The notes: generated by a model not told the origin, from the sequence alone. Shown: positions 14,414 through 33,117, counted from the stretch's first letter. The stretch: 64,000 nucleotides of DNA from an uncultured Candidatus Saccharibacteria bacterium (GCA_964421635.1 CAYQWZ010000003.1:1712-65711), one strand, 5' to 3'. Translations and numbers: made by a program.

Positions 14414-14668
14414 TTATGCTTGTTTTGCAGGGGCTTTGTTAGCAGGGGCTTTAACTTGGCTTTTGCCTAATCCTTTTACACGACGAGCTCTTTTCAGGCT
14501 AATTCTGGTAGCTACATATTTGCGGTTTTCATTGGACACGCTCAATTTAGCTCGACCTTTCTTGCGGCGAGATGCCAAAACAGCCCGACCATTCTTAGTT
14601 TTCATTCTTTCGCGAAAACCGTGTGTGCGGACTCTTTTTCGTTTGTTAGGTTTAAAAGATAATTTCAT
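14414..14668 (-). CDS. rpmH: 50S ribosomal protein L34 with a ~40-aa Lys/Ala-rich C-terminal extension
   Basis: The first 44 aa ([44 protein letters not shown]) are canonical L34. The ORF continues in frame for 40 more residues ([39 protein letters not shown]). Confidence 0.8.
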
Positions 14669-14741: not shown

Positions 14742-14770
14742 TTGACAAAAGGGGAATATTAAGGTACAAT
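14742..14770 (+). promoter_or_regulatory. Consensus sigma70-type promoter (TTGACA, 17 nt, TACAAT) for the small GC-rich ORF. The complementary TTGTCA overlaps a candidate rpmH promoter on the other strand.
   Basis: ccTTGACAaaaggggaatattaaggTACAATac, followed by AGGAGGTG 8 nt before GTG 14795. Confidence 0.5.
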
Positions 14771-14794: not shown

Positions 14795-15166
14795 GTGTCT
14801 AAGAAACGAGTTGTGCTGGCCGCCTTCGGCGCGGTCGTCCTCCTGGTGGTGTGCGCCGTACTTGCTTCGCAACTGATCGATAATGGTCATAAGCTGAGGC
14901 AAGTCCAGTATGTGCCCCTGCCCGGGGTAGCGTACAAGTACTCCACGTTTCATAAGGAAGAGCCGATACGGCTGAGTTACAGCGACAGAACGATCATTCT
15001 GTCAGTTCGCCGAAAGGACTTCCTACCACTTCCGGCTAGTCGAATCTGGTCGAAAGAACAGGTCATGAAACCGGGGTGGACGTACTTCACCGTCGTGTGG
15101 AACCACCAAGACAAATCATTTCAACGATTTGATATCGAGGTGGAACCGCTCGAGCAAGACCCGTGA
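14795..15166 (+). CDS. Small GC-rich membrane-anchored hypothetical protein (124 aa, GTG start)
   Basis: Strong SD AGGAGG at 8-nt spacing, N-terminal TM helix VVLAAFGAVVLLVVCAVLA, strong terminator immediately after the stop. GC content is clearly above the local background. Confidence 0.5.
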   Translation: MSKKRVVLAAFGAVVLLVVCAVLASQLIDNGHKLRQVQYVPLPGVAYKYSTFHKEEPIRLSYSDRTIILSVRRKDFLPLPASRIWSKEQVMKPGWTYFTVVWNHQDKSFQRFDIEVEPLEQDP

Positions 15167-15199
15167 GCGGCCGCGTTGTACGCGGCCGCTTTTCTTTTA
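15167..15199 (+). terminator. Strong intrinsic terminator (GCGGCCGCG-ttgta-CGCGGCCGC followed by ttttctttt)
   Basis: Read directly. It overlaps the stop codon of the convergent minus-strand gene ending at 15197. Confidence 0.7.
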
Positions 15200-17377
15200 C
15201 CAAATATTCCAGATGTCGTCGATATAGTCTAAAGAGTAGTCTATAACTGCTACAAAAGTGTCATACATAAAATCAAGTGGATCCATTGAGATATAGTCGA
15301 GTGGCTCATTAAAGTATTCCTTTTCAGGGCTAGGTTTATATAAGTAGTCTATGTTGGTAGCCGGGTCACTATAAACCACAGGGTCTGGTTCGAGATTAAA
15401 GAAATCTGTTAGAAATGGTTCTTCATATGTTGGTGCATATTCCGGTAATTCTGTTATTTCTTGAAGATCAAAAGCAGTTATCTCTTCAGTAAAAATATTT
15501 TCATCTGGACTCCAATCATTTATTTCGGTAAACCATTTATAATCATCTCCTACTGGTTTAAATGTCATTTCTGGCTCGGACACTATCTCGCTGTATTCAT
15601 CTTCAAACACCGAGCTGGTTTCAGTTTCCGGAATGCTTGTTGTTGGTTCTGAATTTGTACTTTGAGTTGCAGAGGTTCCTTGTTCGTTGCCACTCTCTTC
15701 ACTTTGATCTTCAGATTCTGATTTTGAATCGGTATTTTCAGCTGTCGACATAGTAGTTGCATCTGTTTTACTAGGAGGATAATTTTCAAATTCATCGGCT
15801 AAGGCAATGAAGTCATTGTCTGTATGATTGATTTTAGCAATCTGTTTTACTACCACACCCCAGCGAGGCAGGTCCTTTAATTCTGACGAGGTTAAATTAG
15901 ATGTGTTTAAATCTAATTCGATATCTTTAACATTGCCGTAATTAACATAAAAGGTCGCCAGAGCTCCTCCACCCGTCATTTCTTCAAATTCTCTGTTTTC
16001 GGCTCCTTCTTCTAAAGACATTAGGGCCCACGGTTCGTGGTTATTGCTACCATAACCTACATCATTCCAAGGAATAGAAGCTCTATAAACAGCGAACTTA
16101 GAAACTGGAGCGTCTTCGACGCTTATTCCCTCCCCGATTTCTCCAAGTTTAGGAAAATAGTCTTTGATTGGCAGAACAACCCGATATCCCTCTTTTTCCG
16201 ATCCTTCTATAACAGAATTAGAGGCAAAAAAGTCCCAGCCACTAGCTAATAAATTACCGTGATAGCCAGTCGGGCACCATTGACCAAAGTAGTAAGAATA
16301 GTTACCATCCATTCCCAGAAGCGCCAAGTTAGTATCGGTAGAACCCTCCTTACTCTCGTACTGTCCGTTTCCATCTTTACGATTGTATCTAACCCAGGTC
16401 TCATCACCGTGGTACCCATCAGCTCCTGAAACAGAAATTTCGTAAGGACCTATCGGTTTAGCAATTTCAGCCAACCACCAATAAGGGTGTCCATCTGTGT
16501 CGGTAAAGTCATGAATTTTGTCTGGGGGGATTGGATTTTTTTCATCTCCTTTACCTTCGACAATGCTTACTTTGGCATTAAGAGGGCCTTTAAACTTCTT
16601 TAACCCAGCTTTTTCGTCTATTATCCAAATATCAGACAGGCTAGTTTTGTGAAAAATCTCGTCGGTTGGATGAATATAACCAGCTAAGGGAATATCGGTT
16701 ACTATAATATTTTTGCCCTCGTGTTTATAGTCGATTAAAGCCTCTACTATGTCAGTAGTACTTCTAATACAACCAGCTGTGAAATTGATAAGGTTGTCAT
16801 CACCTGTGCTGTGAATCCCTATATGTCGACAATTGTTTTTTTCTGAATCTGTCTCAAGGCCGCAAAGCGAACTACCTTCGTCTACGGGTGTCCCTTCTAG
16901 ATCGATAAAGAACGGTCCAAAGGAGCCCTTTCTTGCTATTCCGTCGTTATAGGGGATAAATGTGCCATTGTGATTGGTTCCAGGGTTTCCATTTTCGTCT
17001 ACAGCATCTTGGCGATTGGTCCAAGCCTGTCCCATTTTGTACACACCAAGAGGGGTCATTCCTGTGAGGGATTCTTCGTTTGTAAAATAAGATTCTTCAC
17101 CAATATTTTCAAAGGTTGCGTTGGCTAATACAGCAGGAGCATTAATTATGACTACTCCATTTTCATTATAGGCAGTTAGTGTATGTTTAGGATTGCTTTT
17201 GTTTACATCTACCACAACCACCTCAATGTTATAATCAATATTTTCACAAACAGAGGAATCAAAAACATCGGCTGATGGTCTGACTAGTACATACTTAAAT
17301 AAAATAAATACACAGAGAGCTATTACGACACCCAAAACAGAGTAAAGTAACAGCCTCGAATTAATCCCTCTTTTCAT
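15197..17377 (-). CDS. Secreted/membrane-anchored protein with an L,D-transpeptidase (YkuD)-like catalytic domain and an acidic S/E/T-rich region
   Basis: N-terminal TM helix LLLYSVLGVVIALCVFILF. Catalytic-like motif HIGIHSTGDDNLINFTAGCIRS matches the H...(S/T)xGC(I/V)R pattern of YkuD domains. Low-complexity acidic stretch in the C-terminal half. Confidence 0.55.
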   Translation of the reverse strand: MKRGINSRLLLYSVLGVVIALCVFILFKYVLVRPSADVFDSSVCENIDYNIEVVVVDVNKSNPKHTLTAYNENGVVIINAPAVLANATFENIGEESYFTNEESLTGMTPLGVYKMGQAWTNRQDAVDENGNPGTNHNGTFIPYNDGIARKGSFGPFFIDLEGTPVDEGSSLCGLETDSEKNNCRHIGIHSTGDDNLINFTAGCIRSTTDIVEALIDYKHEGKNIIVTDIPLAGYIHPTDEIFHKTSLSDIWIIDEKAGLKKFKGPLNAKVSIVEGKGDEKNPIPPDKIHDFTDTDGHPYWWLAEIAKPIGPYEISVSGADGYHGDETWVRYNRKDGNGQYESKEGSTDTNLALLGMDGNYSYYFGQWCPTGYHGNLLASGWDFFASNSVIEGSEKEGYRVVLPIKDYFPKLGEIGEGISVEDAPVSKFAVYRASIPWNDVGYGSNNHEPWALMSLEEGAENREFEEMTGGGALATFYVNYGNVKDIELDLNTSNLTSSELKDLPRWGVVVKQIAKINHTDNDFIALADEFENYPPSKTDATTMSTAENTDSKSESEDQSEESGNEQGTSATQSTNSEPTTSIPETETSSVFEDEYSEIVSEPEMTFKPVGDDYKWFTEINDWSPDENIFTEEITAFDLQEITELPEYAPTYEEPFLTDFFNLEPDPVVYSDPATNIDYLYKPSPEKEYFNEPLDYISMDPLDFMYDTFVAVIDYSLDYIDDIWNIW

Positions 17378-17431
17378 TTTATTAGTGTTTAAGACTTAGA
17401 CTTGTAAAATAATTTTATCACTATTACTACA

Positions 17432-20400
17432 TTACCATGCAATATGGATTACATCCCAGAAGTCAGGGGAGGTGCAGATGCCGTAATTCTTCGGATCACC
17501 AGTAGCGTTTGAGTTACAGGCTCCTGAACGATAGCGCAAATTGAGAGCGTAAATTTGGTCAGCGTATTGGCTGTCTTCTTGATATAGGTCATGATTTTGT
17601 ACAGAAGTTTCGATTCCCTGAACCTTATTGGCGTCATCGGCCGACTCGTTAATGCGGTGAATTAATACTTGAGTAGGATAAAAATCGGAAGTGTAGTATT
17701 CAGCCCCGCGCTCTTCTCCCATAAAAAGGTCAGTTACCAAATTAATCACCTTGCCGCGCGCCGCCTCTTTGAATCCGTGGAGTTTTTGCACTTCATTTGT
17801 CGGATCAAATTCGCCGAAATAGGTACCCTTTAATTTACCAATATCATTCAGCGTCTCGGCCGCTGGCCACTGAGTGTACGGCACATTGCCCGTGCTCGGG
17901 TCGAAAGGTGGGGAGAACTCTCCCACCTTACCCACAAAAGGATAATAGCCGTCGGCGGTGGCTTTGGTAGTTATTCTAGTTTTGCCAAAGCCAAAGATTG
18001 TGACTAACACAAAGATGGCTAAGCTGACGAAGAACATTGGGCCGGTGCCAATTATTAAGGCGGTTAAAACTAAACTTAGTGCACCCGTAATTGTGCCTGG
18101 TGGTAAACCGATAGCGGTTTCAATTTTAGCAATCTCTTTGCCAAAAATTAAGTCTACTACATAAATTCCTAGCTCAATAGCCGCGTTAACCATTTGCGTT
18201 TTGAGCATGGCTATCTGTTCAGCACTCTGTTTTAATTTTACGGCTTGACTGTATGAATCGTAAGTTTTGTAGAAATTGTATGAAAGCTGGTAGGCATGCG
18301 CCAGTTTACCAGCTTGAATTCCCAGAATTTGTTCACCAAAGTAGAATGCTCGACCAAGCAGCCAGTTGGTATCGTAAAGCTCTGATAATCCTTTTACACC
18401 TACTCCTGAAATTGAGAAGGATTGATCGTTGCCGTTAAGCGCAAAGCCAAACACACCGGCCAAGGTGCCATCAACTAAGCCTAGGTCTTTAAATAGGGCG
18501 GAGCCGAACAGATCGTCTTCAAAACCAGAGAGACGGACTAATCCTTGTTCCGTTAGAAGCTCATTAATATTAGCGCTGTTGCCCTGAATCATTTCAATAG
18601 TGGCCTTAATGGTTTGCTGTTCTGTCAGCCAGCCCAACCCTTGACTGTCTAAATCACTGCGGAACTGCTTGGCCAAAACATTGGAGCTAATATAGGCAAT
18701 AGCGTTTGTTCTCTCTTCAGGCGTTCCTTCGAATAAAATTCGAGATAAGCCAGGCGCTACTAATCCTTTTTGATCGAGTAGCTTCGATAAACCAAAGTCC
18801 ATAGAGGCGTAGCCGAACTCTTTGCCAATGTAATCCCAAGAAGTTTGGGCGACCATTTGAGTGCTCTTGGTGGCGGCAGCGCGGGAGCTATCTGTCTGTA
18901 CAGCCGCTTTTATGCTGTCTAGGGTGGCTTGGTCTAGTCGCTCGTCAGCGGTGTCGTAGCTGGCATCGTTATTTGTTTGTGCCACTTCAGAGTCTGGTTC
19001 TTCAACCACATTCTCATTAGCTGTTTCGGCGTCACCACCTTCAAAGTTTTGTTGTAGCTCGTTTTCGGTGTCAGTGCGTTTATTATCTAAACTTAGCTCA
19101 GCGCCAGCCGCCACCGCCTGCAACACTAGCTGCTCTACTTCATTAGCTAATCCTTCTTCCTCGGTTAGGGCGGGAGCATGGCTGCTGGTTTGCAAAACAT
19201 TGCGAACTCTATTAATTTCACCATCGACATCGACGCCATCTTCGCGTGCTTCTGTAATAGATCTATTGGCGGTGCTTGCGAAGGATACATAACTGTCTTT
19301 AGTAGACAGAGCCTCAATATTTAAATCGGCGATAGCCATAACGGCGTTGATAGGAACTTGGAAGAACGGCCAAACTTCGCCTCCAATTTGTTGCTGAATG
19401 TACTGGCCAGCGATATCTCTAAACTCGCTTAAGGCGCCTACCATAGCTGCAGTAGGATTAACTCCTGCTAACTCGAAGTGACCTGAATCGCGATTATATA
19501 AAGCGCCAAACAGCACTCGTTGCATTACTCTCTTGGCATTAATGCTACGGTCATAATCATTAGTGTTAGTATCTGACATATTGATACCGAAAGCGCGGCC
19601 AGCTAATAATCGGACTCCTTGGTCGAATAGAATTTCATCTGCCTGTTTTGGTTTAGCAATGAGGTCGGCCATGGTGCCCGCTTCAAATCCTAAAGATTTA
19701 TCAATATTGAAGCTGAAGGCCTCAGACATAATTTTATAAACCCGAGCTAAACTGGCTGAGTCATACTCAGACTGTTTAAAGAAATCGATGAGAAAATTAC
19801 GATTGCTGCTGTTAGAAATTAAACCATCAAAAATTGGATCCTCAACACCTAGTCTTTGGAGTATGGCTGCAAACGCCTCGCCACCAAACTCTGTGGCTCC
19901 CTGCTCTCCAGCCATAGATACAAGCTGAGCGGTACTGATTTTTCCTTCAATCCACTTTCGAGTTGGCCCGTTATTCTCTTCATCTAAAATGCCTAGTCGG
20001 CGGTCAATGCCGTTCAGTCTAATTTCGTAGTAGTTATTTGATAAGCTTCCACCGAAGGCAGCGTCAATACTGCTGTTGATTAATCCGTCGTACTGATGAG
20101 CTAGAGCAAAATAATCATCTAGTAGATAGAAAATTCCTCGGTCAGCGCCTTCAGATTCAACAAAAATCTCTCGTGCTTCAAGATAAGATAACCTCATAGA
20201 AGTGGTCATCTCGTACATCTCTGTTTCAATGTCGTTCATCTTTTTGGTAATAGCTTTTGCTTCATCAGGAACAGGAATACTAAAAGCAGCCATTATTTTC
20301 TTCTGCCAGTCTCTCTTTTCAAGATCGTTCATAGAACCGGAGCCTTTCAACATCTCTTCTCTGGTGCCCTTAAATTCGCCTGTTTGTAATCCTAATATCT

Positions 20401-23400
20401 TTTCAATTCTGGCCTGCCCCATGCTCTCTACCGGATTATCTGTTAAGGTGAATCCTTTTGGCAGATCAAGTTCAATGCCCAGTTTGCCTAAAGTGGCGCT
20501 GATTATTGCCTGCTGCCGGTTCTCATCGCGCTCCGCGTCTGTGTTACCGTCAGGATAAATTACAGAATTGAAAAAATCACTTGGCAGCTCTAAGGTTTGC
20601 TCTAACTTACGACCACCAACACCCACCAAAGTTTTAACAGGATCACCCAAAATAAAGTCAGCGATATCGTCGGCCGTTAGCCAGTCAGGAATTTTGACAC
20701 CTAGCTTCTGAGCCAGTGAGCTAATGGTGCGAGCGGTAATATGCTCGCGACCCTTTTCGATTAGGCTTTGTCGGTCTGTTTCTCCGCCATCATTTCGAGA
20801 CGAGCCAACAGCGAAGAATAAATTATCGGCAGTCTGGTCGCCTTCGTAGAAAAGATAGAGTGCCTCTTTTGGTAAATCTAGGGTGTCAGCTAATTTTTGA
20901 ATTCCCAAATGCACCAAAATGTTATCTATATTGCCTCCAGCTAAAGCGCCTTGTGCCGAACTGATCAGCAATTTGTCAGAGCCAAAAAGTATTCGTAAAG
21001 GATTCAGAGGGACATCTTCTAGTGAACCAACATTCGTATTTAAACTCTCCAAACTAATCTCGCTTGGAATGTGCGAGCTGTAAGCAACAGAATCGCCCTC
21101 CATAATTTCCATCACCGCTCGTTCGATATCTGAGGCGGCGCCTAATATCTGATTGACGGAATCGAAACTGTCTGAATCCTCAACAAAATCAATAATGCTA
21201 AAGAGGTCATCTTTAACATCGCGCACAGTGTAGCTGCTCTCTAGGTTGGTTAAATTGTCACCTAGCTCTACCACGCCCGCAATAGTGCGTTTGCTGTTGT
21301 TAATTATGTTTTGTACCTGACCCTGTACTCCATCTGGGAAATCGCTGACGCGCCGCTCAATGATGCGCAAGGAGTCATAAATTTTTTGATAGCGATTAAC
21401 ATAGAAAAAGATATCAGAGGCTAATTCAGTGTCTTCCAGCTGTTCGTATTCTGGGCTGTCTTGTACTTTTTCTATTAAAAGGCGGCGACCGATGCGTCTA
21501 AATTCGTGGGCTGGTTTATCACTCAAAAAGACATCGGCGTAGAAGTTGTCTTTTGGATTAGAGGCTACGAAATTTGTGTCACCGCTAACATTTGTAACAC
21601 TTGTTCTAAACTCTTTTTGGTCGTGGCTAGGTAGAGTTTCAGACAGGTACCAAACGCCAGCTATTTTGAAAGCGCTCTCGGCGTTGCTGCCCCCAATAAT
21701 ATCGAACATCGTGCCAGCCGGAAAGCCGAAAACTCGGTCGCGTTGCTGTGAAGTACCATCAGGGTTTTGACCATAGTCGCGGTAGTCATGCAGTGTTTGT
21801 AAAGAGTCATTCAAAATATTTAAAGATGCATTATACAGGGCTATTTTTTTCTGCTCTTCTTGAGTGAGATTGTTGGCAGTGATTATTGAGCCGTTGCCAG
21901 GGACATTTAAGCTAGCGATTAATCCTTCAATGGTGCCAGTCAAAGTTTCTAAAGAAGAGATTTCGGACGCTGCATTGCTTAAGAAACTTGTGCGAGCATC
22001 TTTGTTAGAAGGATTATATGTAATCATGCCTTCAAGCGGATCATAGGTTGGCCCAGGATTTTCTGCTTGGTAGGCCTTAGCCTTAAGCCGTTCAGCTATT
22101 TGTACAACACTGTTAGCAATATCTCCTTGTCCGGCATCCTGTAAATATTTTTTTAGAATAAACAGTGAGCCTGACTGGCCAGCCCCTCCTTCGTTCTCTC
22201 TATTGGTCAGCTGCTGCACTATAAATAGAGGGCTGGCTGGAGTATAATCTTCAGCTGCATTTGCAGATTCGACATGGTAGCGACCTAAATTAGCATCCCA
22301 GACTTTTTGGCCGGCCGCCTGTTTGAACTCAGCCACATTGCCAGAGTTAATAAAGCGCAAAGTAGTATTGGCTGGTAGTCGCAGTCGCTCATCAATTATG
22401 ATGGCATTTTGAGCGGCAAAAACAGTATTGTATCGAGCCTCTCCTATAGCGGCTTTGACTTCATTAATATCATTTGAAGCGAAGGATCTCTCTGGTACGG
22501 GCAAGCGCTCTTCAATGTATCCCCATCCTAAATGCTCCTTAAACCCATTCACTGAGTCGTAGTTATTTAGGGCGTAACTTTTGATGCCCAAGAGGTCTGC
22601 TAGCCGCTGTTTTCCAATGTTCGTAAGTAAATCGTTAGGACTATCTCCTTCAGGCAGTCTATCGAGCCCAATCTGTTTAGCTACAAACTGACGGCCAGTG
22701 TACTCTTCAATATCGGCCAAAGAGTTGGCGTTGCGAATTGCTTCAGGGTCAACATTAAGAGCTCCTCCCAAAACAATAGCACCAAAATCTTTAATAGTGT
22801 CGCCAAAATTAAACTGTGAAATATCTTGGCCGTCGAGCAGAGTTCCCAGCAGCTGGCCACCGACAAACTTGGCTAAATCTTCTGTACTCAAGCTGTCGAG
22901 GGTGCGGCCATCAAAATTGAATTCACCTAAAATTTCTTCTGCATCTAAAAGCTCAAAAATGCTATTAAAAGATAGATCTTGCAGCATTTCATGAATAGCC
23001 AACTCGGGTAGAGGTTCGGCGGCAATTCCGTCATCTGATTGCCAAGCGACTTTAATGTTTATTGGTTTTTGGAACTTATAGCTGTTAGAGCTGCTGAATA
23101 TTCCGGTTTTTCGAATGCGGGTGGTGACTCGAATGCGATCAATCTCTGAAATATCAATAGCCTGTGAAACGGCGTGCGAGCCTTCATTAAACTTAATTGG
23201 CACATCTTGGCCGTTGATTTTTTGAGTTGAAAAATCGCGGCTAGTTAAATCTACGAAGTGAGGGCTACGGGTAGTCTCTAAGCTTTTATCCCATTTACCG
23301 TTACCGTTGGTGTCAATGTATTCTTCGCCTTCATTCTGCTCGTAAATTCCGTCACCGTCATCATCTAAAATTGGTTCTGCTCGGTTCTGCTGCTCCTTGC

Positions 23401-24316: not shown

Positions 24317-25986
24317 TCTGTTAGTTGTGGCCTAGATACCTTTAGGATTTGATTTATTTGGCGATTGTCTTGGAATAATATAGCCTCATCTTCACTGCGA
24401 GGGCCGCCATCTGAACTGCAGAAATAGACTCTTTTTTGAGAATCAGAGAAGACAAACAGACCGTAGTGTGTTTCGTTGTCAACTTCTTTGGAGGTGATAA
24501 TAATGTCGCCATCCTCTAATGATTCGGCGTCGAAATCTTCGCCAACCTTGCTTGGTTTTAAGATTGTGCTAAAGGTTTTTGGTAAATCTACAGCATTAGG
24601 GCTGAGACACAAAATACAGTTACTGTCGTTGCCGCGAATCAGATATGTAATAAATCCGCTGGGGTCGCAGCCGCGTTTACCGCCCACCACATTGCTGCCG
24701 TCGCGAAGAGGCAAGCTTGTACTTTTAGGATTATCATTAGTACTGCCGACCCAATTTCCACTATCTCCAACCGCAGATATTGCCCTGCTGGCTAGCTCTT
24801 GCGGAGTTTTGACTGTCACGCCGAGAGTGAGATTAATTAATTCATCGAGATTTTGAAATAGCTCTTTTAGTTTATCTTCAATATCTTCTGTGCCGCCCAC
24901 AATCTCTTGAGCTAAAGTTTTGGCAGTGGCTAAAGGTCCCGCCACTATGGCTTCAGAGTTTGGTTTGCCAGCAATCTCTTCTTCAACCTTGTCTAAAAAC
25001 TCAATAATGCCACTTTCTGTCAGCTCCTTAGCCGAAGTAATCTGTCGAATCTCTTCATCACCAGCTAAGGTAGCTAGCCGTTCAATGGCTTCTTTGACAG
25101 TAGGATTAGACAGGTCTGCAGGCTGAGATAAAGTACCGCCGCGTGATCCGCCGCCAATTAAACTGGCGATGCCAGCCCCAAGACCTATTAATAAAATTAC
25201 AATTAATATTGGCCCAATATTGGCCACAATGAAAGGTATAACGACTGAGGCAACGCGAGCGCCCAATTGGGCGGCAATTTTAGCACCGGCCTGAGCTGCC
25301 TTGCCAGCCGCTCGCGCACCTGTTTTAACAGCAGAGCCAGCGGCTTTTGTCCCTGCCTTCACTCCAGATTTTGCTGCTTTTTCAGCTGCCCCTTTAGCCG
25401 CTTGACCACTGGCTTGCCCAGCTTTGCTTGCTGCCTGTTTACCAATCTGACTACCAGTTTTCATTGTTTGCTTGCCGGCTTTGCCGCCATATTCGGTAAC
25501 CGTTCTGGTGTCAGGAGTTTTGCTAGCTCTGGTTTTAGGGTCAATTTGTCGACTTTGTGGGTCTTCGCCTCTTTTATCAGCTGGCCTCTCAGCTTTCTGC
25601 TCTCGGGCTTTCTCTAAACTATCTTGTTCTTGTTGTCTGTTTTGGTCTGACTGCGACTGTTCAGCCCGTTCCTGCTGTTGCTCAAGCTGCTCCGACTCAT
25701 CTTCTTCTGAATATTGAGCGTTATTTAATTCTTCCAACTCCTCGTCACTAAGCTCCAAATCTTCATCAAAATCTTCTTCGCGATCACCAGTCGGCCCAGC
25801 ATCGCGACCAGCCCCAGACAGCGGAGCACCTTTCTGTCTTAACAGCGCCGCCAAATTAACAACATTTGAGGCCCCCGGTTTGGAAGGAACATTTCGACGA
25901 CGGATTATCTCAGCGCGCAAAGACCGACGGCTGCGCCCCATCCTTCTATTATTGTTATTTGGTTTTTTGTTAGGTGTATTGGCCAT
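24313..25986 (-). CDS. Membrane-anchored protein with a C-terminal NlpC/P60-like cysteine peptidase (cell-wall hydrolase) domain
   Basis: Basic N-terminus, acidic region, Ala/Lys-rich repeats, one TM helix (VVIPFIVANIGPILIVILLIGLGAGIASLIG), then GCDPSGFITYLI ... GDIIITSKEVDNETHYGLFVF, which resembles the Cys/His motifs of NlpC/P60 domains. Confidence 0.5.
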   Translation of the reverse strand: MANTPNKKPNNNNRRMGRSRRSLRAEIIRRRNVPSKPGASNVVNLAALLRQKGAPLSGAGRDAGPTGDREEDFDEDLELSDEELEELNNAQYSEEDESEQLEQQQERAEQSQSDQNRQQEQDSLEKAREQKAERPADKRGEDPQSRQIDPKTRASKTPDTRTVTEYGGKAGKQTMKTGSQIGKQAASKAGQASGQAAKGAAEKAAKSGVKAGTKAAGSAVKTGARAAGKAAQAGAKIAAQLGARVASVVIPFIVANIGPILIVILLIGLGAGIASLIGGGSRGGTLSQPADLSNPTVKEAIERLATLAGDEEIRQITSAKELTESGIIEFLDKVEEEIAGKPNSEAIVAGPLATAKTLAQEIVGGTEDIEDKLKELFQNLDELINLTLGVTVKTPQELASRAISAVGDSGNWVGSTNDNPKSTSLPLRDGSNVVGGKRGCDPSGFITYLIRGNDSNCILCLSPNAVDLPKTFSTILKPSKVGEDFDAESLEDGDIIITSKEVDNETHYGLFVFSDSQKRVYFCSSDGGPRSEDEAILFQDNRQINQILKVSRPQLTE

Positions 25987-27264
25987 TCAAGGAGCTAATT
26001 TTAGAGGAAAACTATAAAGAGTATTGTTGCTGACAAAATGCAATGTCGATTCATCGTTCGTCAAATAAATATGCTCGATATTATTGGTAATAGTTGGTGA
26101 GGATTCATACAGCTGAACCTCTTTTGAACTGACATTAAACTTAATTAATTGCGAGTTGCCGTTATCGTCAATGGCCTGAACTGTTAGGAAGTTGCTGTCG
26201 TCGTGCCAAACGAAAGCGCCAGATTTTGCCAAAGTGAACAGCTCGTCGCTTTCTCCTGTATCTGGATTAATTAGCACCAAGACAGGCAAAGCGGTGTCGT
26301 TCTCTTCTGCTACCAAGTAGGCGCCATTTGGGCTAAAACTGGCTTTAGATACACTCTTAGCGTTAGCGGAGTAGAGCTGATCAATAGCTAAATCGTAAAT
26401 AAAGAGATTGCCTTTGCTGTATAAAGGATTATCAATAACGGCGATTTTTGTGCCCGCCTTTGACCAAACAAACTCAGGAGCAGATAATTTGTCTAAAACA
26501 GCCAGAATGTTTTTATTATTCATACCGGTGTCAGCAGTACCAAAAACTGGTTCGTTGTCGCGGAACTCAACAAAACCTAGACGGTTGTGAGTGGCGTCAT
26601 ATTTAATATCTAGCACATTAGGATCAGCTAAAAGTTTAAACTCAGAGTTAACGAAATCTGGTTTAGTGAAGTCAAAAATGTACCAAATATTTTTGCTATC
26701 TTTGGTAATCACTGCTTTGTGCGAAGTAATCCATTCTAAATCGGAATTTCTTTTAAAGATTGGGTCTGAGATGGCTACTTTTTCGCCCGTGTCTAAGTTA
26801 TAACGAACAAGCGTGGTTAAATCTCGGCCTAAATAGTAAAGGGTATTAGTCGCTCGGTCGTAAGAAAGATAGGTGGCTTGACCAACCACATCTGATTCAG
26901 GATTAGAAGCGATAGTGACTGTTGGGGTAATTTCCACCGTTCTGCCTCGGGGAGCTTCAATAACCTCTTTATGGTTTACTTCTTGACCCGACATAATGCT
27001 AATGGTGTGTTTACCCGGAATGGTGACGAATTTAAAAGTATCCTCATCAATTTGTGCCAGACTAACTTCTTGCCCATCAATTAAAATTTCAACTTCCTGA
27101 TACTGTAAATTTATTAAAATGGTGCTGCGATTTAGAATGAATCTATTGACAGCTAGTGCCAGCAAAAAAACCGCCAGCAAAGTAGACAAAATTACATACT
27201 GCCGATGCTTGTACTCTTTCGAGGTGATATGTTTAATTTTTTTGATGACTTTTTTAAATGGCAT
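25987..27264 (-). CDS. Membrane-anchored protein with PEGA-like and TolB-like beta-propeller-like regions
   Basis: N-terminal TM helix; segment VEILIDGQEVSLA...GKHTISI is PEGA-like; repetitive beta-strand-rich C-terminal region with SPNGAYLV-type blades. Confidence 0.45.
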   Translation of the reverse strand: MPFKKVIKKIKHITSKEYKHRQYVILSTLLAVFLLALAVNRFILNRSTILINLQYQEVEILIDGQEVSLAQIDEDTFKFVTIPGKHTISIMSGQEVNHKEVIEAPRGRTVEITPTVTIASNPESDVVGQATYLSYDRATNTLYYLGRDLTTLVRYNLDTGEKVAISDPIFKRNSDLEWITSHKAVITKDSKNIWYIFDFTKPDFVNSEFKLLADPNVLDIKYDATHNRLGFVEFRDNEPVFGTADTGMNNKNILAVLDKLSAPEFVWSKAGTKIAVIDNPLYSKGNLFIYDLAIDQLYSANAKSVSKASFSPNGAYLVAEENDTALPVLVLINPDTGESDELFTLAKSGAFVWHDDSNFLTVQAIDDNGNSQLIKFNVSSKEVQLYESSPTITNNIEHIYLTNDESTLHFVSNNTLYSFPLKLAP

Positions 27265-27265
27265 T

Positions 27266-27679
27266 TTATTTTTCTACAACTTCAAAACTAATTGACTCAA
27301 CTGGTGCGTTTATTTTTTGTAACCAGTTTTTTGCGTCTACTTTTATACTATCCTGTTGCTTAAAATATTGTGAGGGTATTTCTAACCTTAAACTATTTAA
27401 ATCAACGAAATATAGGCTGTAATTGTCTGCAAAGTGGGGTAAGAAATCTAGCCACGGGTTATTTTTAATTTTTTCAGAGTAAGGCTGTGCTATCTCGTCA
27501 TTATCACTAGGTGCTGATTCAGCAACATCTGGTTGATTATCTCCAAAGTCAGTTATCTCAGTATCTGATTTTGTTGTTGGTGCTTTAATAGCTTTGTTAT
27601 TTGATGAGATCATAAAAAATCCAATTACGATTAAGACAATAATAAGTACGACAATTATTATTTTGGTTCTATTATCCAT
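27266..27679 (-). CDS. Small membrane-anchored hypothetical protein (137 aa)
   Basis: N-terminal TM helix IIIVVLIIVLIVIGFFMI; overlaps the upstream gene by 22 nt, suggesting translational coupling. Confidence 0.45.
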   Translation of the reverse strand: MDNRTKIIIVVLIIVLIVIGFFMISSNNKAIKAPTTKSDTEITDFGDNQPDVAESAPSDNDEIAQPYSEKIKNNPWLDFLPHFADNYSLYFVDLNSLRLEIPSQYFKQQDSIKVDAKNWLQKINAPVESISFEVVEK

Positions 27680-29130
27680 AATCCTTTTTTATTATTACTA
27701 ACGATGTTAGTTTTTGCTGCTGTGATATTTCTTTTGTAAGAATCAGCTAGAAAAATAATGTTACGGCTGTTATCTATGGCAAATAAAGTTACATAATGTC
27801 CACCACTAGTAAAATCTCCACTTTTCATTAAGGCGATGACTGGTTTGCCTTGGGCTAGGGCGCTAAGTGATGCTTGCCAACCAGCACTGGTTACTTTTAA
27901 TCCAAACAAACTTCCGACGCTGTTAAGCATTGCGCCACTTGTGCCGCTACCACAAAGTCGCCACCTACCTCTGGTTGATAGTTCAGCAGTAACTCCTGGG
28001 TCAAATTTTCCACCAAATTCTTGATTAATAGAGCTATTAAAGCTGTTTGTTGAAAGAACTCCTCTTTCAACATAATAAGCGATGGCATTAGACAGTGATG
28101 TTGGGCCACAGCCAGAAGAAGAAATATTGGCACCACAACTTACAATGGATGCGTTTGTATTACCTAATTGACCTGCGCTGTTTACACCTTTATAAGGCGT
28201 ATTTGCCCAAGGGCCTTGGTGCTGAGTAAAGCGTGGAAAGTCCGCAAAGGTTCTATAAAAACCATCAGCTTCTTTTGTTGTTCCTCCTTTGTAAACTTTT
28301 CCATTAAAGGTTACGCTATCTGGTATTACAATAGAAGAAGGATTTTGCAGAGGTCTATTTGTAAAGTTAATATTACCTCCAATTTGAGTTAAATCACCAG
28401 TAAAAGCATTTCCTTGATAAACTGTGACGCCTGAAACCTCACAAGCGTATAGGTCGTTATCTACCCCTTGGCAATTCATTCGACTGCGAGCTGCCTGTTC
28501 ATCGCGCGTGCCAGTAAAGGCTAAATCGAGTCTCTTTGTCATATCCTTGCCAGTCGACAACATCGTTTGGTAATAGCGTTCGTTAATATTAGTAGCAGTA
28601 CCAAAGGTATCAATAACAGGAGCTGGTTGGTCGGTGTAACCGGGAATGTGTAGCCAGTAAGCAGTGCCTGTCTGTACTTGTGCACTGTCGCTGGTTTTTA
28701 TTGGCCACTTAGCCCCGTTTTTCCACATTGTTGGGTGATTAACTGCAATGCCACCAACTGCGTAATTATTATTGGAGAAAGCTGAGACTAGCTCGTAGTT
28801 AGCATCGTCTTGATATTTCTTCCGATCTTCATTAGAGAGGCTACAATGATTGATAATTTGTTGAGTAGTTTTATTGCGGTAGGCATAATTTACACCAGAG
28901 AAGGTTCCGCAACCACCCTCTATTTTGTCTGAAACCTTCCACCCAGGAGTATAAAAAGTGACAAAAACTGTTTCATCAGATGAGATAGAACGAAGACCGG
29001 CGCTACTAAATATTCCTCCCGTGTTTAAAAATCTTAGCCACCCAAAAGGGCTGAAAATAAGACCAACAAATATACCGGCAATAGCTATTATTACCATAAA
29101 GACGATAATATATGATAAATATTTGTTCAT
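27658..29130 (-). CDS. Membrane-anchored protein with a C-terminal peptidase C39-like (papain-fold) domain
   Basis: N-terminal TM helix. C-terminal SCGANISSSGCGPTSLSNAIAYY ... GGHYVTLFAIDN resembles the CGP(A/T)SL and downstream His motifs of Peptidase_C39-like domains. Confidence 0.45.
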   Translation of the reverse strand: MNKYLSYIIVFMVIIAIAGIFVGLIFSPFGWLRFLNTGGIFSSAGLRSISSDETVFVTFYTPGWKVSDKIEGGCGTFSGVNYAYRNKTTQQIINHCSLSNEDRKKYQDDANYELVSAFSNNNYAVGGIAVNHPTMWKNGAKWPIKTSDSAQVQTGTAYWLHIPGYTDQPAPVIDTFGTATNINERYYQTMLSTGKDMTKRLDLAFTGTRDEQAARSRMNCQGVDNDLYACEVSGVTVYQGNAFTGDLTQIGGNINFTNRPLQNPSSIVIPDSVTFNGKVYKGGTTKEADGFYRTFADFPRFTQHQGPWANTPYKGVNSAGQLGNTNASIVSCGANISSSGCGPTSLSNAIAYYVERGVLSTNSFNSSINQEFGGKFDPGVTAELSTRGRWRLCGSGTSGAMLNSVGSLFGLKVTSAGWQASLSALAQGKPVIALMKSGDFTSGGHYVTLFAIDNSRNIIFLADSYKRNITAAKTNIVSNNKKGLWIIEPK

Positions 29131-29798
29131 TTTATAAGTGGTGCTCTGTTGCTTCTAACAAATTGAACAGCTGCTTTCTCAGCTTCGGTTGCAGGAAATT
29201 CCATCCAGTTACAACCAGCTCTATCTGCTAGACCATCCCCATCATTAAGAAAGGATGTTATCTGATCTTCTAGCTGACTTTTAGATGGTATTCCGGCATA
29301 AGCCGCATGAATATGTTCGTTTCCACACCAATCCCTTCTTGTTTTACACGAACGATACCAAGCTGCCCACCCTTGAGAGCGCATAGCTCGTACAATCTTT
29401 TCAATATCTCCATGAGATTTGCCACGAACAGATACATCAATAGCAGCTGTGTATGTTGAACCGGGCTCGGCAGCATGGTAGCCATGACTAGCTTTGGCAT
29501 TGCCTCGCCCTTGAATAACTGTCCAGCTCATGCCAGTTAGCTCTACTGCTTTTCTGTAAGCAGATGACGCAACTGGATGCACATGTTTAATTGAACCTTG
29601 ACCATCATTGGCTATTAAAATATCTCCTCCTGTGTACACAACTGGTGTTGAATAATCAGAGCCTTCTCGCGAGCCTAAAAAAGGAACAGCGTTAATTGCT
29701 CCTTGCATGGCCAAACCAAAAGCGGCGCCGCCACCAAAAAGAATTATTATTAGGCCAAAAGCCATAATCCATATTGATGCGTCCCCTCTCTTTTGCAT
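29127..29798 (-). CDS. Secreted hypothetical protein (223 aa), possible cell-wall hydrolase
   Basis: N-terminal TM/signal segment, His-rich motifs (IKHVHP; NEHIH), GC-richer than its neighbours. 4-nt overlaps on both sides indicate operon membership. Function not assignable by eye. Confidence 0.45.
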   Translation of the reverse strand: MQKRGDASIWIMAFGLIIILFGGGAAFGLAMQGAINAVPFLGSREGSDYSTPVVYTGGDILIANDGQGSIKHVHPVASSAYRKAVELTGMSWTVIQGRGNAKASHGYHAAEPGSTYTAAIDVSVRGKSHGDIEKIVRAMRSQGWAAWYRSCKTRRDWCGNEHIHAAYAGIPSKSQLEDQITSFLNDGDGLADRAGCNWMEFPATEAEKAAVQFVRSNRAPLIK

Positions 29799-31619
29799 TT
29801 AATTAATGTTTTTGTTGCGCAAGGCTAGCAGCTCTTTAGGGTCAGAAGTAATAATTTGATTCTCTGTGTAGCTGGCAATAACCTTAATAGCTACATGATT
29901 TTGCCCAGCAAAGAATAATCCTTCACCAACATTAGCGTTTAGCAGCAGATATTTTTCTTGTTCCGTCAGGTTAAAAACCTCCGCTACTTTTTCAATAGAA
30001 CTGGAGGATTGCTTAAGTAGAAGCTGCATGGAAGAGTTGGCCACAATTGGTTTGCCGTACTTGTTTTCTAAAAAGTCCTCCACATCTTGCGAAATTATGG
30101 TTAAGCCAAGATAGTACTTGCGGGCGCGTTTGGCTAAACTTTGCAGATATTTGGCGGAATCTTCGTATTGCATCATTAACCAGGCTTCATCAACAATCAT
30201 CAGGCGGCGCTTGAGTTTACCACGAATTACATTCCAAACATAGTTTAAAATAACGAACATAGCGACCGGCCGTAAGGATTCTTCAAGGTCGCGTACTGAG
30301 AAAACGACAAATCCTCCTTTGAGCTCGAAGTTGGTTGGTTGGTTGAATAAACCGGCGAAAGAGCCTTCAGTATATTTAGTTAAGCGTTGAATTAAGCTGT
30401 CGGAGTTACGAATGTTTTGCAGCACAGAAACGAAATCACCTAAAATTGGCGGTTCATTTTTGTGGCTACTTGGGTCTTCGGTGATGTCTTTCAGGGCGTA
30501 AGTTTCTCGTAAGGCGGTGTCGATGATACCGTCCTCTTCAGGGGAGACACCGCCGACCATAATGCGAATTAGACTTGAAAGGGAAGCGATATTAGATTTT
30601 AAGACATCCTCATCTTCGCCCCGCTCATTCTCAATTACTGGCAAATCAAAAGGATTAATTCTTTGCGCTGAACTCAAGGAGATATTCAGGAAAGATCCGC
30701 CGACGGCTTCAGCTAAGCGCTGATACTCGTTTTCTGGGTCAACCACAATGATGTCAGTGCCAAGCATTAAATAGCGAAGTGCTTCGAGTTTAATAGCGAA
30801 AGATTTACCACCACCAGATTTAGCCAGCACAATTGAGTTAGCGTTTTCCAAGTCGAAGCGATCAAACAGAATTAGGGAGTCGTTGTGACGGTTTAATCCG
30901 TAAAGAATTCCTTTGTCTTCTGTCAGTTCAGCAGATGTGAAAGGAAAAGTAGTAGAGAGTGAGCCGGTGTCGAGATTGCGCAAAACCCCCAGCTCGTCGT
31001 GGCCAATTGGCAGGGTCGAGTTGAATCCTTGCTCCATTTGCAGGGTCGATTCCTTAGTGTAAATAAGGGTGCCACCTAAAGCTGACTCCAGCTGGTTCGA
31101 AATTTCTTCCAGATCTTTTAAGGATTTTGAAGAAATGGTGAAATAAAGGGCGAAGTGGAATAGTTTGTTGTGACCTTGAGTCAGTGCATCTCGCATCTCG
31201 TCAATATCTTGCAGGGCGACATCTAATTTAGGGTCGCGCACTAATCCTTTTTCACGCTCAATTTGACGGGTAGATTCCAAGCGGCCAGTCTGCCGTTCTA
31301 ATTTATTTAGTACAGATGAAGTGTCTTGAGGATAAATAAACATAGATATGTCAATGGTGATATCAAAGTTTATTACAGGAGAGAGCCAGTTAGTGTTCAA
31401 GAAACGCGGATAATTATAGACGAACATTGTTTTAGTGTAGGTTTCGCCTAGCTGCAAGTAATTCGGTTTTATTATCATGCCAGAAGGAGAAATAATATCG
31501 CGCACCGAAGTTGTGCCGGCTGAGTAGGCCTGTTTAGCTTGGCGCTGCAAATCTCTCTCAGATGTTGTCTCTTCAGATTTTTTGCGTTTATTGAAACCGA
31601 AAGGTAATTTTAGAGCCAT
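29799..31619 (-). CDS. VirB4/TrbE/CagE-family type IV secretion ATPase (C-terminal two-thirds)
   Basis: Walker A AKSGGGKS, Walker B MIVDEAW, C-terminal RARKYYLGLTIISQDVEDF block, and an upstream CagE_TrbE_VirB-like region (YNYPRFLNTNWLSPV). Confidence 0.75.
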   Translation of the reverse strand: MALKLPFGFNKRKKSEETTSERDLQRQAKQAYSAGTTSVRDIISPSGMIIKPNYLQLGETYTKTMFVYNYPRFLNTNWLSPVINFDITIDISMFIYPQDTSSVLNKLERQTGRLESTRQIEREKGLVRDPKLDVALQDIDEMRDALTQGHNKLFHFALYFTISSKSLKDLEEISNQLESALGGTLIYTKESTLQMEQGFNSTLPIGHDELGVLRNLDTGSLSTTFPFTSAELTEDKGILYGLNRHNDSLILFDRFDLENANSIVLAKSGGGKSFAIKLEALRYLMLGTDIIVVDPENEYQRLAEAVGGSFLNISLSSAQRINPFDLPVIENERGEDEDVLKSNIASLSSLIRIMVGGVSPEEDGIIDTALRETYALKDITEDPSSHKNEPPILGDFVSVLQNIRNSDSLIQRLTKYTEGSFAGLFNQPTNFELKGGFVVFSVRDLEESLRPVAMFVILNYVWNVIRGKLKRRLMIVDEAWLMMQYEDSAKYLQSLAKRARKYYLGLTIISQDVEDFLENKYGKPIVANSSMQLLLKQSSSSIEKVAEVFNLTEQEKYLLLNANVGEGLFFAGQNHVAIKVIASYTENQIITSDPKELLALRNKNIN

Positions 31620-31621
31620 AA

Positions 31622-32593
31622 TTATTGTGGTTGATTAGGTTGGTTAGGATTAGGATTTGAATCTGGCGCTGCTGGTTCGGTTGGCGCCGTCGGTTCAGTC
31701 GGCTGGACTGGTGGTTCTGGTTCGGCCGGCGCGGTTGGTTTTTCAGCGAACTTCTGTGCTTCCTGAGGAACATCGGCTACTTCAATCTGGCTCATTACGC
31801 TGTCACTAGTCGTATCTAGTTTTATTTCATCCGAGCTGGCATCCAGATGCTGGGCCTCGTTTGGCTGATCGCCAACAATTAACTGTTCTTGTGGGCTAGC
31901 TTCTTTTTGCGAAGTATCTTTTGTAATAATCTGTTCTTTGGAAACAACTTCTGTTTGAATTTTCTCTAAATCAACCAGCCTTTCTGTATCTGAAATATCA
32001 GGATTATAAATGCCGTAGAAAAGCTCAATTAGCTGTTGAGTGTTAAGCGCTTCGATGCGAACGCCGAGCTGTGATAATCCACCCGCTACGGCGTTCGCCT
32101 GAGTGTTAAGCTCATCACGGTAGCGGTTAAAGCTTGACCGGCTAAGTGAAGGGGCAGCCTGTTTTTTGAATAAAGATAGCATTCCGCCAGAAGCGCCTTT
32201 AATAGAGGCACTTCTATAAGTCAAAACAATGAAGTAATGCTTTGACATAATATTGGCTACAGAAACTAGACTACGCATAAAATTGATGTAGTCTTGAGCG
32301 TGAATTTGGAGCAACTCGTTGTCTATCTGTTTTGTATGTCGCTCCATACCAATTAAATAAGGTTCTAAATCTAGCCGTAGCGACTTAATAATTATCTGGA
32401 TTGGAAAATCTAGGCTATTTAAAAATCCTTGATATTTAGCAATTATTGAGTTTTGCTCTAACTCGTTTTTTAAATCAAAGTTAATAGGTAATGCTTTAAG
32501 TACAACCGCTAAAGAGCCATCCTTCAGAATGGCTACACCTTCTTCAATGCCAGCAATGGGCAAATTAATTTGAGGGATATCTTTATTCATCAT
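31622..32593 (-). CDS. Protein resembling the N-terminal domain of VirB4-family ATPases, encoded separately, with a Pro/Gln-rich tail
   Basis: IAGIEEGVAILKDGSLAVVLKALPINFDLK is typical of VirB4/TraC N-termini. It ends TAA, then 2 nt, then the ATG of the ATPase ORF in a different frame. Confidence 0.5.
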   Translation of the reverse strand: MMNKDIPQINLPIAGIEEGVAILKDGSLAVVLKALPINFDLKNELEQNSIIAKYQGFLNSLDFPIQIIIKSLRLDLEPYLIGMERHTKQIDNELLQIHAQDYINFMRSLVSVANIMSKHYFIVLTYRSASIKGASGGMLSLFKKQAAPSLSRSSFNRYRDELNTQANAVAGGLSQLGVRIEALNTQQLIELFYGIYNPDISDTERLVDLEKIQTEVVSKEQIITKDTSQKEASPQEQLIVGDQPNEAQHLDASSDEIKLDTTSDSVMSQIEVADVPQEAQKFAEKPTAPAEPEPPVQPTEPTAPTEPAAPDSNPNPNQPNQPQ

Positions 32594-33011
32594 CTAGTTC
32601 TGAATAACCATGACTATCTACCACTTCGGCCACATTAGCTAAATCTTTTTTAGAATATATTTTTTTAGCAACCTTCTTATTACTTTTCTTTTGCGCTTTA
32701 TCGGCTCTGATAATTGGCTTACCTGAGGATTGATACTGTGACCATCCTCGCTCTTTGGGAGTAATAATGTATTTAAACAATGAGGATAAAAACTTAGGCA
32801 TTGGCTCACCCTGAACTTTAATAGCTGCTAGGGCGAAAGCAAAAATACCAATTGCGCCCGCAATAACCATGCCTAAAAATCCGCCAATTTTAATTAGCGC
32901 CAGATAGGCAATTAACCCACCCAAAGCCAAATAACCAAATTGGATAAGCGTAAACTTACCTACAATTCGATCCTCCATATCAAGATTTTGGGGGACTTTA
33001 AACTGTGGCAT
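32583..33011 (-). CDS. PrgI/VirB3-like small membrane protein (2 TM helices)
   Basis: 142 aa with two adjacent hydrophobic helices (FGYLALGGLIAYLALIKIGGFLGMVIAGAIGIFAFALAAI). It sits immediately upstream of the VirB4-like genes and overlaps the next gene by 11 nt. Confidence 0.5.
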   Translation of the reverse strand: MPQFKVPQNLDMEDRIVGKFTLIQFGYLALGGLIAYLALIKIGGFLGMVIAGAIGIFAFALAAIKVQGEPMPKFLSSLFKYIITPKERGWSQYQSSGKPIIRADKAQKKSNKKVAKKIYSKKDLANVAEVVDSHGYSELDDE

Positions 33012-33097
33012 CTACTCTATTATAGAAGAAAAATCGACTGTTTGGGCAGCCAAAAGAGTGGACAAAATTTGAGGCTTTTTAATATTAAATAATCTTT

Positions 33098-33117
33098 CCT
33101 GCCTGCCGGCAGGCAGG
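33098..33117. repeat. Perfect 20-bp GC-rich palindrome CCTGCCTGCCGGCAGGCAGG in the divergent promoter region upstream of the T4SS-like operon
   Basis: Read directly. A second copy with one mismatch lies at 42821-42840. Confidence 0.6.

Follow-up and report, generated by a model that had tools for sequence, protein, structure and literature searches.

Genes at the locus

The stretch of DNA examined here, 64,000 nucleotides from an uncultured Candidatus Saccharibacteria bacterium (GCA_964421635.1, CAYQWZ010000003.1:1712-65711; hereafter the window), carries a series of ten minus-strand genes between positions 33011 and 15197. It opens with three type IV secretion system (T4SS) genes, prgI, trsD and virB4, and runs on through seven genes for predicted envelope proteins, including candidate peptidoglycan hydrolases and one giant protein (Table 1). 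All ten share one orientation and overlap or abut one another. Counted from prgI, the junctions are an 11-nt overlap, a 2-nt gap, an exact abutment (0 nt) and a 4-nt overlap, then a 22-nt overlap, a 1-nt gap, a second exact abutment and another 4-nt overlap; the last gene follows after a 54-nt gap. Public gene calls begin the 223-aa open reading frame (ORF) behind virB4 11 codons later, which shortens the product to 212 aa and leaves a 33-nt gap. The ORF calls confirm the coordinates and tight junctions of a first-pass annotation made from the sequence alone, but not its count of eleven genes; the actual number is ten, as it is in that annotation's own list.

Promoter-like matches inside the series number 40 against a shuffle expectation of 37.8, terminator-like matches 19 against 18.9, and nothing argues against a single predicted transcription unit. 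At its distal end a GC-rich hairpin with a T-run after it on the plus strand only likely marks the end of the operon's transcription unit. The convergent plus-strand ORF on the other side of this hairpin encodes a 126-aa protein with an N-terminal transmembrane (TM) helix and no family match; it has a sigma-70-like promoter match of 11/12, and its predicted terminator is the same hairpin with the T-run. The GC content of the operon (0.38-0.45) is not atypical of the window (0.34-0.47). By hydropathy, all seven products downstream of virB4 are membrane-anchored, with one N-terminal or central TM segment each, or, in the giant, a signal peptide and a hydrophobic hairpin. Hydropathy and domain content together indicate that the bulk of each downstream protein should be extracellular.

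Table 1. Features of the T4SS operon and of its surroundings in the window
Feature	Position	Strand	Remarks
PrgI/VirB3-family protein, 142 aa	32583..33011	-	PF12666; two TM helices, 22-43 and 46-64
TrsD-type protein, 323 aa	31622..32593	-	free-standing VirB4 N-terminal-domain homologue
VirB4 ATPase, 606 aa	29799..31619	-	Patescibacteria clade related to MPF-FATA
Membrane-anchored protein, 223 aa (or 212 aa)	29127..29798	-	candidate LAS-fold (M15/VanX/Hedgehog-type) zinc peptidoglycan peptidase
Anchored two-domain protein, 490 aa	27658..29130	-	N-domain ~30-270; C-terminal Peptidase_C39_2
Small protein, 137 aa	27266..27679	-	N-terminally anchored; no assigned function
Anchored protein, 425 aa	25987..27264	-	PEGA-like beta-sandwich and TolB/PD40-like beta-propeller
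PrgK/CwlT-like protein, 557 aa	24313..25986	-	predicted NlpC/P60 (CHAP/C40)-fold domain
Giant envelope protein, 2294 aa	17432..24316	-	signal peptide; ~2040 extracytoplasmic residues; conserved C-terminal domain of ~190 aa
Anchored YkuD-domain (L,D-transpeptidase) protein, 726 aa	15197..17377	-	long acidic C-terminal region
Hairpin	15165..15191		GC-rich, 12-bp stem, between convergent ykuD-type gene and plus-strand ORF
Convergent ORF, 126 aa	14786-15166	+	promoter match at 14742-14770
Perfect 20-bp GC-rich palindrome CCTGCCTGCCGGCAGGCAGG	33098..33117		divergent intergenic region, 86 nt upstream of prgI ATG
Second palindrome copy	42822-42841		1 mismatch
recF, dnaN, dnaA	547-4515		dnaA at 3091-4515
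PilB-type ATPase gene	5524-7050
DUF2157 protein, 335 aa	11382-12389		adjoins yidC
rpmH-rnpA-yidD-yidC	12997-14668		directly downstream of operon
L34 (rpmH), 84 aa	14414-14668		L34 domain at residues 1-44
154-aa protein	33903-34367		between S1 gene and prgI
Ribosomal protein S1 gene	34371-35705		from relatives' precomputed Pfam matches
H+-pyrophosphatase gene	36203-38215		from relatives' precomputed Pfam matches
tRNA-Ile	40473-40549		anticodon UAU
Ribosomal protein S15	45166-45600		Lys/Arg-rich N-terminal extension
Four type IV pilin-like genes	47039-49090		N-methylation motifs

The core triad and its relatives

The first three products make up the core of the system. The 142-aa protein matches the PrgI family (Pfam PF12666, E 3.5e-9, 37.5 bits against a cutoff of 27), and the 606-aa protein is a VirB4 ATPase of the CD1110 family (NCBIfam NF045971, conju_CD1110, 384 bits against a cutoff of 325), with further matches to TIGR00929 (E 3e-35), Pfam P-loop_TraG (E 4.8e-30) and AAA_10. 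Its Walker A (AKSGGGKS) and Walker B (LMIVDEAW) motifs and the RARKYYLG...SQ block are all in place. The 323-aa protein encoded between them has a Pro-rich tail and no TM helix; it matches the NCBIfam TrsD (TrsD/TraD) model at E 1.3e-7, and a protein identical to it has a precomputed PF26593 TraC-like match. Two proteins here cover one VirB4 model in complementary fashion, the 323-aa protein taking CD1110 model positions 11-130 and the ATPase positions 179-734, and the N-terminal part of this split VirB4 corresponds to the TrsD of pGO1-type systems. The profiles thus bear out the first-pass annotation, which had read a PrgI/VirB3-like protein and a VirB4-like ATPase in two pieces from the sequence alone.

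Where does this VirB4 belong? Database homologues number more than 8000, and the source-named ones are from Patescibacteria, from an unspecified 'bacterium', or titled VirB4/TraC. In species-representative genomes, identity to 80 related loci is 48-63%, and these loci are titled Saccharibacteria/Saccharimonadales, Doudnabacteria, Berkelbacteria or other candidate groups. The best matches there are bacterium ADurb.Bin212 (63%) and a Berkelbacteria metagenome-assembled genome (60%), after which, at 48-55%, come Doudnabacteria, Saccharibacteria/Saccharimonadales and other candidate groups by locus title; metagenomic relatives reach 91%. Against 72,556 plasmids identity is at most 38%, the top matches being Firmicutes and Actinobacteria VirB4 proteins of the CD1110 family. 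By identity only, the protein would group with Patescibacteria and not with the VirB4 of plasmids or integrative and conjugative elements (ICEs). In 80 of 82 loci trsD is the gene immediately ahead of virB4, and prgI adjoins the pair in 46 of the 82 by tblastn. prgI-trsD-virB4 is a conserved, translationally coupled triad.

A monophyletic Patescibacteria clade of 2,425 VirB4 proteins has been placed inside MPF-FATA (Quinonero-Coronel 2025, PMC12102498). In that survey these proteins are associated with TrsD and PrgI, relaxases are rare, the genes often lie near dnaA, rpmH and rnpA, and inheritance within classes is largely vertical; a 2025 review (PMC12857230) restates these points together with those made for Southlakia epibionticum (see below). 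The Patescibacteria T4SS clade descends from, or is sister to, the monoderm MPF-FATA conjugation machinery. The operon described here lies about 10 kb from dnaA.

Envelope proteins downstream of virB4

The 223-aa protein, initially labelled a secreted His-rich protein, has no profile match, yet H108, D121 and the H162-x-H164 pair are invariant in its three-member family, and in one relative (L088:2152-3252; 41% identity, E 4e-28) the same LAS-like domain is fused to a Glucosaminidase domain (PF01832). This Rosetta-stone fusion ties the orphan domain to peptidoglycan hydrolysis. The protein is probably a LAS/M15-like peptidase, a candidate zinc peptidoglycan peptidase and not a proven one. The 490-aa protein carries a Peptidase_C39_2 domain (PF13529, E 6.9e-10, 40.1 bits against a cutoff of 24, residues 337-465) with the Cys (GCGPTS) and His (GGHYV) motifs of this papain-like cysteine peptidase family, so that its reading as a C39-like peptidase stands above the Pfam gathering score. 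Its N-domain, some 240 aa long and lineage-specific, is joined in relatives to an Amidase_2 head (54% identity in L085, 31% in L083). The catalytic module is therefore exchangeable, C39_2 here and Amidase_2 there. The sequence of the N-domain raises the suspicion of a 3D/DPBB-type (lytic-transglycosylase-like) domain. A profile of the N-domain has no match in the PDB, and PDB sequence searches with the 223-, 490- and 557-aa proteins gave nothing usable.

The 137-aa protein has sub-threshold Pfam matches only, over its TM segment; L087 alone encodes a counterpart at this place in the operon, with weak similarity (25% identity, E 3e-9). The 425-aa protein has no significant Pfam match of its own; it is a full-length homologue (E 7e-9) of a protein in L003 (L003:4254-5546) that matches PEGA at 22.4 bits against a cutoff of 20.8 as well as PD40, and through this homologue the PEGA/beta-propeller assignment is supported. 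Proteins at the same position in L083, L085, L087 and L088 are 30-66% identical to it.

The N-terminal 235 aa or so of the 557-aa protein are disordered and cytoplasmic; after them come one TM helix, a helical stalk outside the cell and the C-terminal domain. A model of the C-terminal 288 residues, built on an alignment of 16 sequences, reaches a predicted local distance difference test score of 83, and at the level of fold only the domain is predicted to be papain-like, of the NlpC/P60 type. The initial hydrolase assignment thus holds for the predicted fold and not for sequence profiles: NlpC_P60 and CHAP profiles match neither this protein nor any of the 16 aligned family sequences, and a search of the PDB with the family profile returned nothing relevant. 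The Cys in GCDxSGF, the nucleophile, is invariant in the family, as is a second Cys at the place expected of the third catalytic residue. The overall architecture is that of the PrgK, CwlT and Tn916 Orf14-type (VirB1-type) T4SS hydrolases of Gram-positives.

The giant protein has its hydrophobic hairpin at residues 2071-2105 by hydropathy. Its homologues form 10 clusters among 5.8 billion proteins, nine of them 2250-2492 aa long and one a partial sequence of 1798 aa, and conserved blocks extend over the entire length of the family. No Pfam domain matches any of 9 members (the giant and 8 homologues); for the giant, searches of NCBIfam, PADLOC and PHROGs and of the PDB by profile were all empty, and the gene has no tandem repeats. 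Hidden Markov models (HMMs) were built from the proteins of about 1000 aa encoded behind virB4 at 10 loci of the Doudnabacteria type and at 35 of Saccharimonadia; they match no operon product, and homology of the giant to SEML1_0007-type proteins was rejected. A defence-system or phage origin of the unassigned genes likewise finds no support in PADLOC or PHROGs.

The last gene stands somewhat apart. Its 726-aa product does carry the L,D-transpeptidase domain first ascribed to it (PF03734, E 1.8e-6, 29.1 bits against a Pfam gathering cutoff of 23.4; motif HIGIH...TAGCIR), followed by an acidic C-terminal region with no recognisable domain. In the protein collection it clusters with no other sequence, and the 82 loci searched contain no homologue of it. 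Because the giant gene directly abuts rpmH in L087, L088 and L089, where the YkuD gene is absent, the gene is a recent lineage-specific insertion at the operon's end. It is on the same strand as the operon, as first described, and by these sequence comparisons it is an add-on and not a conserved component of the cluster.

Conservation of the operon in relatives

Locus contexts were compared in five relatives (L083/L089, L085, L087, L088 and the more distant L003). Common to all is a backbone of prgI-trsD-virB4, two to four varying genes, and then the genes for the beta-propeller protein, a relative of the 557-aa protein (p557-like) and the giant, which always comes last in this order. Beyond the giant gene, the loci that extend so far (L087, L088 and L089) continue with rpmH-(rnpA)-yidD/yidC; the two of them long enough to include dnaA, L087 and L089, have it next. 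Four relatives keep the backbone together with its site beside rpmH-yidC-pilB-dnaA. Synteny, with both triad and backbone conserved, thus bears out the T4SS reading.

From virB4 to the propeller gene, the set of hydrolase genes differs in every relative examined, even among those whose VirB4 is 80-91% identical to the one described here. The varying genes encode C39_2, C39_2 twice, Amidase_2, a Glucosaminidase fused to the LAS-like domain, or M23 with C39_2, depending on the relative. Compared with L085, identity is highest for VirB4, at 91%, and decreases to 77% for PrgI, 74% for TrsD, 66% for the propeller protein, 63% for the giant, 61% for the LAS-like protein and 49% for the p557-like protein. 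Conservation of the genes for the propeller protein, the NlpC/P60-fold protein and the giant does not extend beyond a narrow lineage.

Functions of conjugation and of the channel

Pfam scans covered the window ORFs of at least 110 aa, except the S1 and H+-pyrophosphatase genes and spurious overlapping ORFs. Among the ORFs scanned there is no member of the relaxase, coupling protein or integrase families and no match to VirB6, VirB8 or VirB2 (PF18895, PF04956); the first-pass annotation had recognised no relaxase, VirD4, VirB6, VirB8 or integrase, and was right in this. The window has no array of small two-TM proteins. In the operon itself no product has more than 2 TM helices by hydropathy or a VirB6- or VirB8-type match in Pfam or NCBIfam. 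Precomputed Pfam matches of the close relatives show no VirB6-like, VirB8-like or VirB2 protein within 10 kb of virB4, and neither an integrase nor repeats nor att-like boundaries were seen at the locus.

What the machine may do

A functional counterpart is available in one cultivated species. In Southlakia epibionticum ML1 an apparent T4SS, SEML1_0006-0019, is essential by transposon sequencing (Wang 2023, PMC10633639). It is most like Gram-positive conjugative systems, with neither relaxase nor coupling protein recognisable; the genes for hydrolases and a PEGA protein that come after its virB4 are essential too (PMC10633639, main text and supplement). The T4SS of Patescibacteria has thus already been described, there and in the Patescibacteria survey (PMC12102498), and the present one is not a new kind of machine. 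The initial proposal, a monoderm-type, T4SS-like and non-conjugative apparatus linked to episymbiosis, is supported by profile, fold and synteny searches.

The region is very probably a chromosomal, origin-proximal T4SS locus of the Patescibacteria clade that serves host interaction. Since relaxase and coupling protein are lacking and the locus is fixed beside rpmH-yidC-dnaA in all relatives, host interaction, through attachment or the exchange of protein or other substrates, is favoured over conjugation, and by analogy with the essential homologous cluster of S. epibionticum it is the most likely role. With PrgI and TrsD holding it at the membrane, VirB4 would power the assembly of an envelope-spanning complex and transport through it. 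The hydrolases would open peptidoglycan, that of the cell itself or, given the fast change of the cassette, that of the host. The giant would provide the extracellular part, for contact or as a conduit, a role attributed to VirB2-like pili in Saccharimonadia and to adhesins in enterococcal plasmids. From their linkage and conserved order, and by analogy with the hydrolases of Gram-positive systems and with the S. epibionticum cluster, we infer that the downstream products belong to one machine with the core. The rapid turnover of hydrolase types would reflect adaptation to host walls.

Several observations weigh against this interpretation. Outside the narrow lineage, homologues of the seven downstream genes escape detection, and their membership in the machine is argued from linkage and analogy, not from homology to proven T4SS parts. 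The function is extrapolated from a single cultivated species of Saccharimonadia. In the 557-aa protein the expected His (THYG) is present here and replaced by N, D or A in most homologues, which makes its predicted peptidase activity uncertain. With no VirB6-like channel, VirB8-like protein or VirB2 pilin found in the window or within 10 kb of virB4 in close relatives, the translocation channel is unaccounted for; the missing components may lie elsewhere in the genome or may be too diverged to recognise.

As the main alternative, could the series instead be two separate units, a T4SS core triad and an unrelated envelope operon for remodelling of the cell's own wall with a giant adhesin, merely transcribed together? 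Beyond this lineage the triad does not keep the downstream genes with it, the giant family is confined to its few clusters, YkuD, amidase and endopeptidase are ordinary housekeeping wall activities, and the YkuD gene is a later addition. Yet such a division is unlikely, given junctions that throughout overlap by 4-22 nt or leave gaps of 0-2 nt and an order (virB4, hydrolases, propeller, p557-like, giant) that recurs in 5/5 relatives, even at 70% VirB4 identity. In L003, where VirB4 is 63% identical, the genes run in an analogous order (PEGA/PD40, M23, C39_2, giant), and it is the downstream hydrolase and PEGA genes that are essential together with the T4SS in S. epibionticum.

Descent of the locus from an ICE or plasmid by decay, with relaxase, coupling protein and integrase lost and a transfer module left that is residual or no longer functional, would agree with the place of VirB4 in the CD1110 conjugative family and with its nearest homologues outside the Candidate Phyla Radiation (CPR), which are on plasmids mostly typed conjugative. 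It is nonetheless extremely improbable: all genes are intact and full-length in relatives, the 6.9-kb ORF included, the site between the S1/pyrophosphatase genes and rpmH-yidC-dnaA is the same in every relative, the composition is not atypical, neither an integrase nor repeats nor att-like boundaries were seen, and the clade is inherited largely vertically within classes (PMC12102498). A machine for DNA uptake, like Helicobacter ComB or archaeal Ced, that imports host DNA or nucleotides is also very unlikely, although T4SS-related importers exist, the genome is reduced and host-dependent and no export-type coupling protein is present. Competence in S. epibionticum requires type IV pili as well as ComEC; without comEC, transformation is abolished and viability is unaffected, whereas the T4SS is essential (PMC10633639, via PMC12857230). 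No DNA-binding or nuclease-like component is found among the cluster's Pfam and NCBIfam matches.

If the locus is a host-interaction T4SS, what takes the place of the pilus? In the lineage related to the placeholder genus CAILIB01 the VirB2 pilus and the VirB6 extension could have been replaced by the giant, the NlpC/P60-fold anchor, the propeller protein and an exchanged cassette, a tentative and rather doubtful idea. The giant of such a replacement outer part may represent a hairpin-anchored family of 2,250-2,490 residues without known domain. Which of the LAS-like, C39_2, amidase, glucosaminidase and M23 enzymes the cassette contains varies from one examined genome to the next. If the cassette follows host wall chemistry, the operon would be an organ for penetrating the host wall, and host range could be predicted from its enzymes.

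The Patescibacteria T4SS is among the few molecular systems shown to be essential for the epibiotic lifestyle of this very large and uncultivated group. The present locus adds a comparative data point and does not change that picture. Among the 80 related loci the core triad stands out by extreme conservation, with VirB4 at 48-63% identity, and all outward-facing parts are lineage-specific, the pattern expected of parts that touch a changing host surface. For structural and genetic work the locus points to the giant and p557-like families and to the exchangeable hydrolase heads.

Palindrome and neighbouring genes

The perfect palindrome that the first-pass annotation placed about 90 bp upstream of the first gene is real, but it is not specific to the operon. 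A second copy with 1 mismatch lies between convergent unrelated genes, where 0 are expected by chance, and the flanks of the two copies are unrelated and do not align. An 18-nt core of the palindrome also occurs in two loci of distant Patescibacteria (L009:21308-21325 and L010:13026-13043), and the palindrome is absent upstream of prgI in the relatives L083-L086. With its position upstream of prgI not kept, copies elsewhere and the core in distant CPR loci, a role as T4SS operator was rejected. It is a recurrent hairpin motif, and across these genomes it may be a shared hairpin or a terminator-like element. The GC-rich palindrome CCTGCCTRCCGGYAGGCAGG is intergenic, with unrelated flanks, in this genome and in distant Patescibacteria.

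Upstream of the operon lie tRNA-Leu and the genes for ribosomal protein S1 and the H+-pyrophosphatase. The 154-aa protein encoded between the S1 gene and prgI has neither a family match nor a TM helix; it is found at the same place in all relatives, 60-76% identical, with a 3-nt gap to the S1 gene here and a 1-nt or 4-nt overlap in relatives. On the other side, the polytopic 335-aa membrane protein (DUF2157, E 1.4e-8) is the sole multi-TM protein of unassigned role near the operon and shows no link to VirB6. The remaining window holds housekeeping genes and a type IV pilus minor-pilin array; pilB also lies in it. Like the T4SS, the type IV pilus is an envelope machine on which Saccharibacteria are known to depend for viability, and its components share the window with the T4SS. 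Basic extensions are seen in several ribosomal proteins: L34 has a Lys/Arg-rich extension beyond its L34 domain, S15 one of about 60 aa that resembles the histone-like protein HC2, and S1 a Lys-rich C-terminal tail. The anticodon of tRNA-Ile is a less common way to read AUA. An Rfam scan of the window found tRNAs only.

Comparison with known systems

The closest described counterpart is the S. epibionticum cluster (SEML1_0004/0006-0019). There, too, PrgI, a TrsD-like protein and VirB4 are encoded in the same order on one strand, anchored envelope proteins including peptidoglycan hydrolases and a PEGA-domain protein follow, and the cluster is chromosomal, beside dnaA-dnaN-recF, with neither relaxase nor adjacent coupling protein. 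It differs in having two large VirB6-like proteins, an NTF2-like (VirB8-like) protein and six VirB2-like pilins, none of which was found in the window. A 1113-aa protein directly follows virB4 in S. epibionticum, and the HMM from 35 such Saccharimonadia proteins matches nothing here, where the large protein, of 2294 aa, is encoded by the sixth gene behind virB4 and represents a distinct and rare family. The S. epibionticum hydrolases are lysozyme-like, unlike the LAS-like, C39_2 and NlpC/P60-fold proteins of this operon.

With the MPF-FATA systems of Gram-positives (pCF10 PrgH-I-J-K-L, pGO1 TrsC-D-E, the CTn/Tn916-like elements of C. difficile and ICEBs1) the operon shares a two-TM VirB3-like protein followed by a CD1110-family VirB4, and with pGO1 also the free-standing TrsD. 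PrgK, TraG(pIP501), CwlT and Orf14 are likewise membrane-anchored wall hydrolases with an NlpC/P60/CHAP domain. The giant recalls PrgB of pCF10 as a large surface protein, although it has no Pfam match and is unrelated to PrgB-type adhesins. Unlike those conjugative T4SS, the present system has no relaxase, oriT, coupling protein, VirB6-like (PrgH/ConG) or VirB8-like (PrgL/ConB) component, occupies a fixed chromosomal site outside any mobile element, and has a VirB4 no more than 38% identical to theirs.

The Patescibacteria survey (PMC12102498) covers core components and neighbours at the level of Pfam; the sections consulted do not describe the giant family, the p557-like NlpC/P60-fold family or the variable hydrolase cassette. 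The loci it does describe resemble this one in their TrsD and PrgI-type VirB3, their affinity to MPF-FATA and the rarity of relaxases, as well as in their position near dnaA/rpmH/rnpA and in VirB6, VirB8 and VirB1 homologues that often escape detection. Against this background the T4SS itself is already known, and what is of interest here is the giant family, the NlpC/P60 family recognised by fold only and the modular hydrolase cassette.

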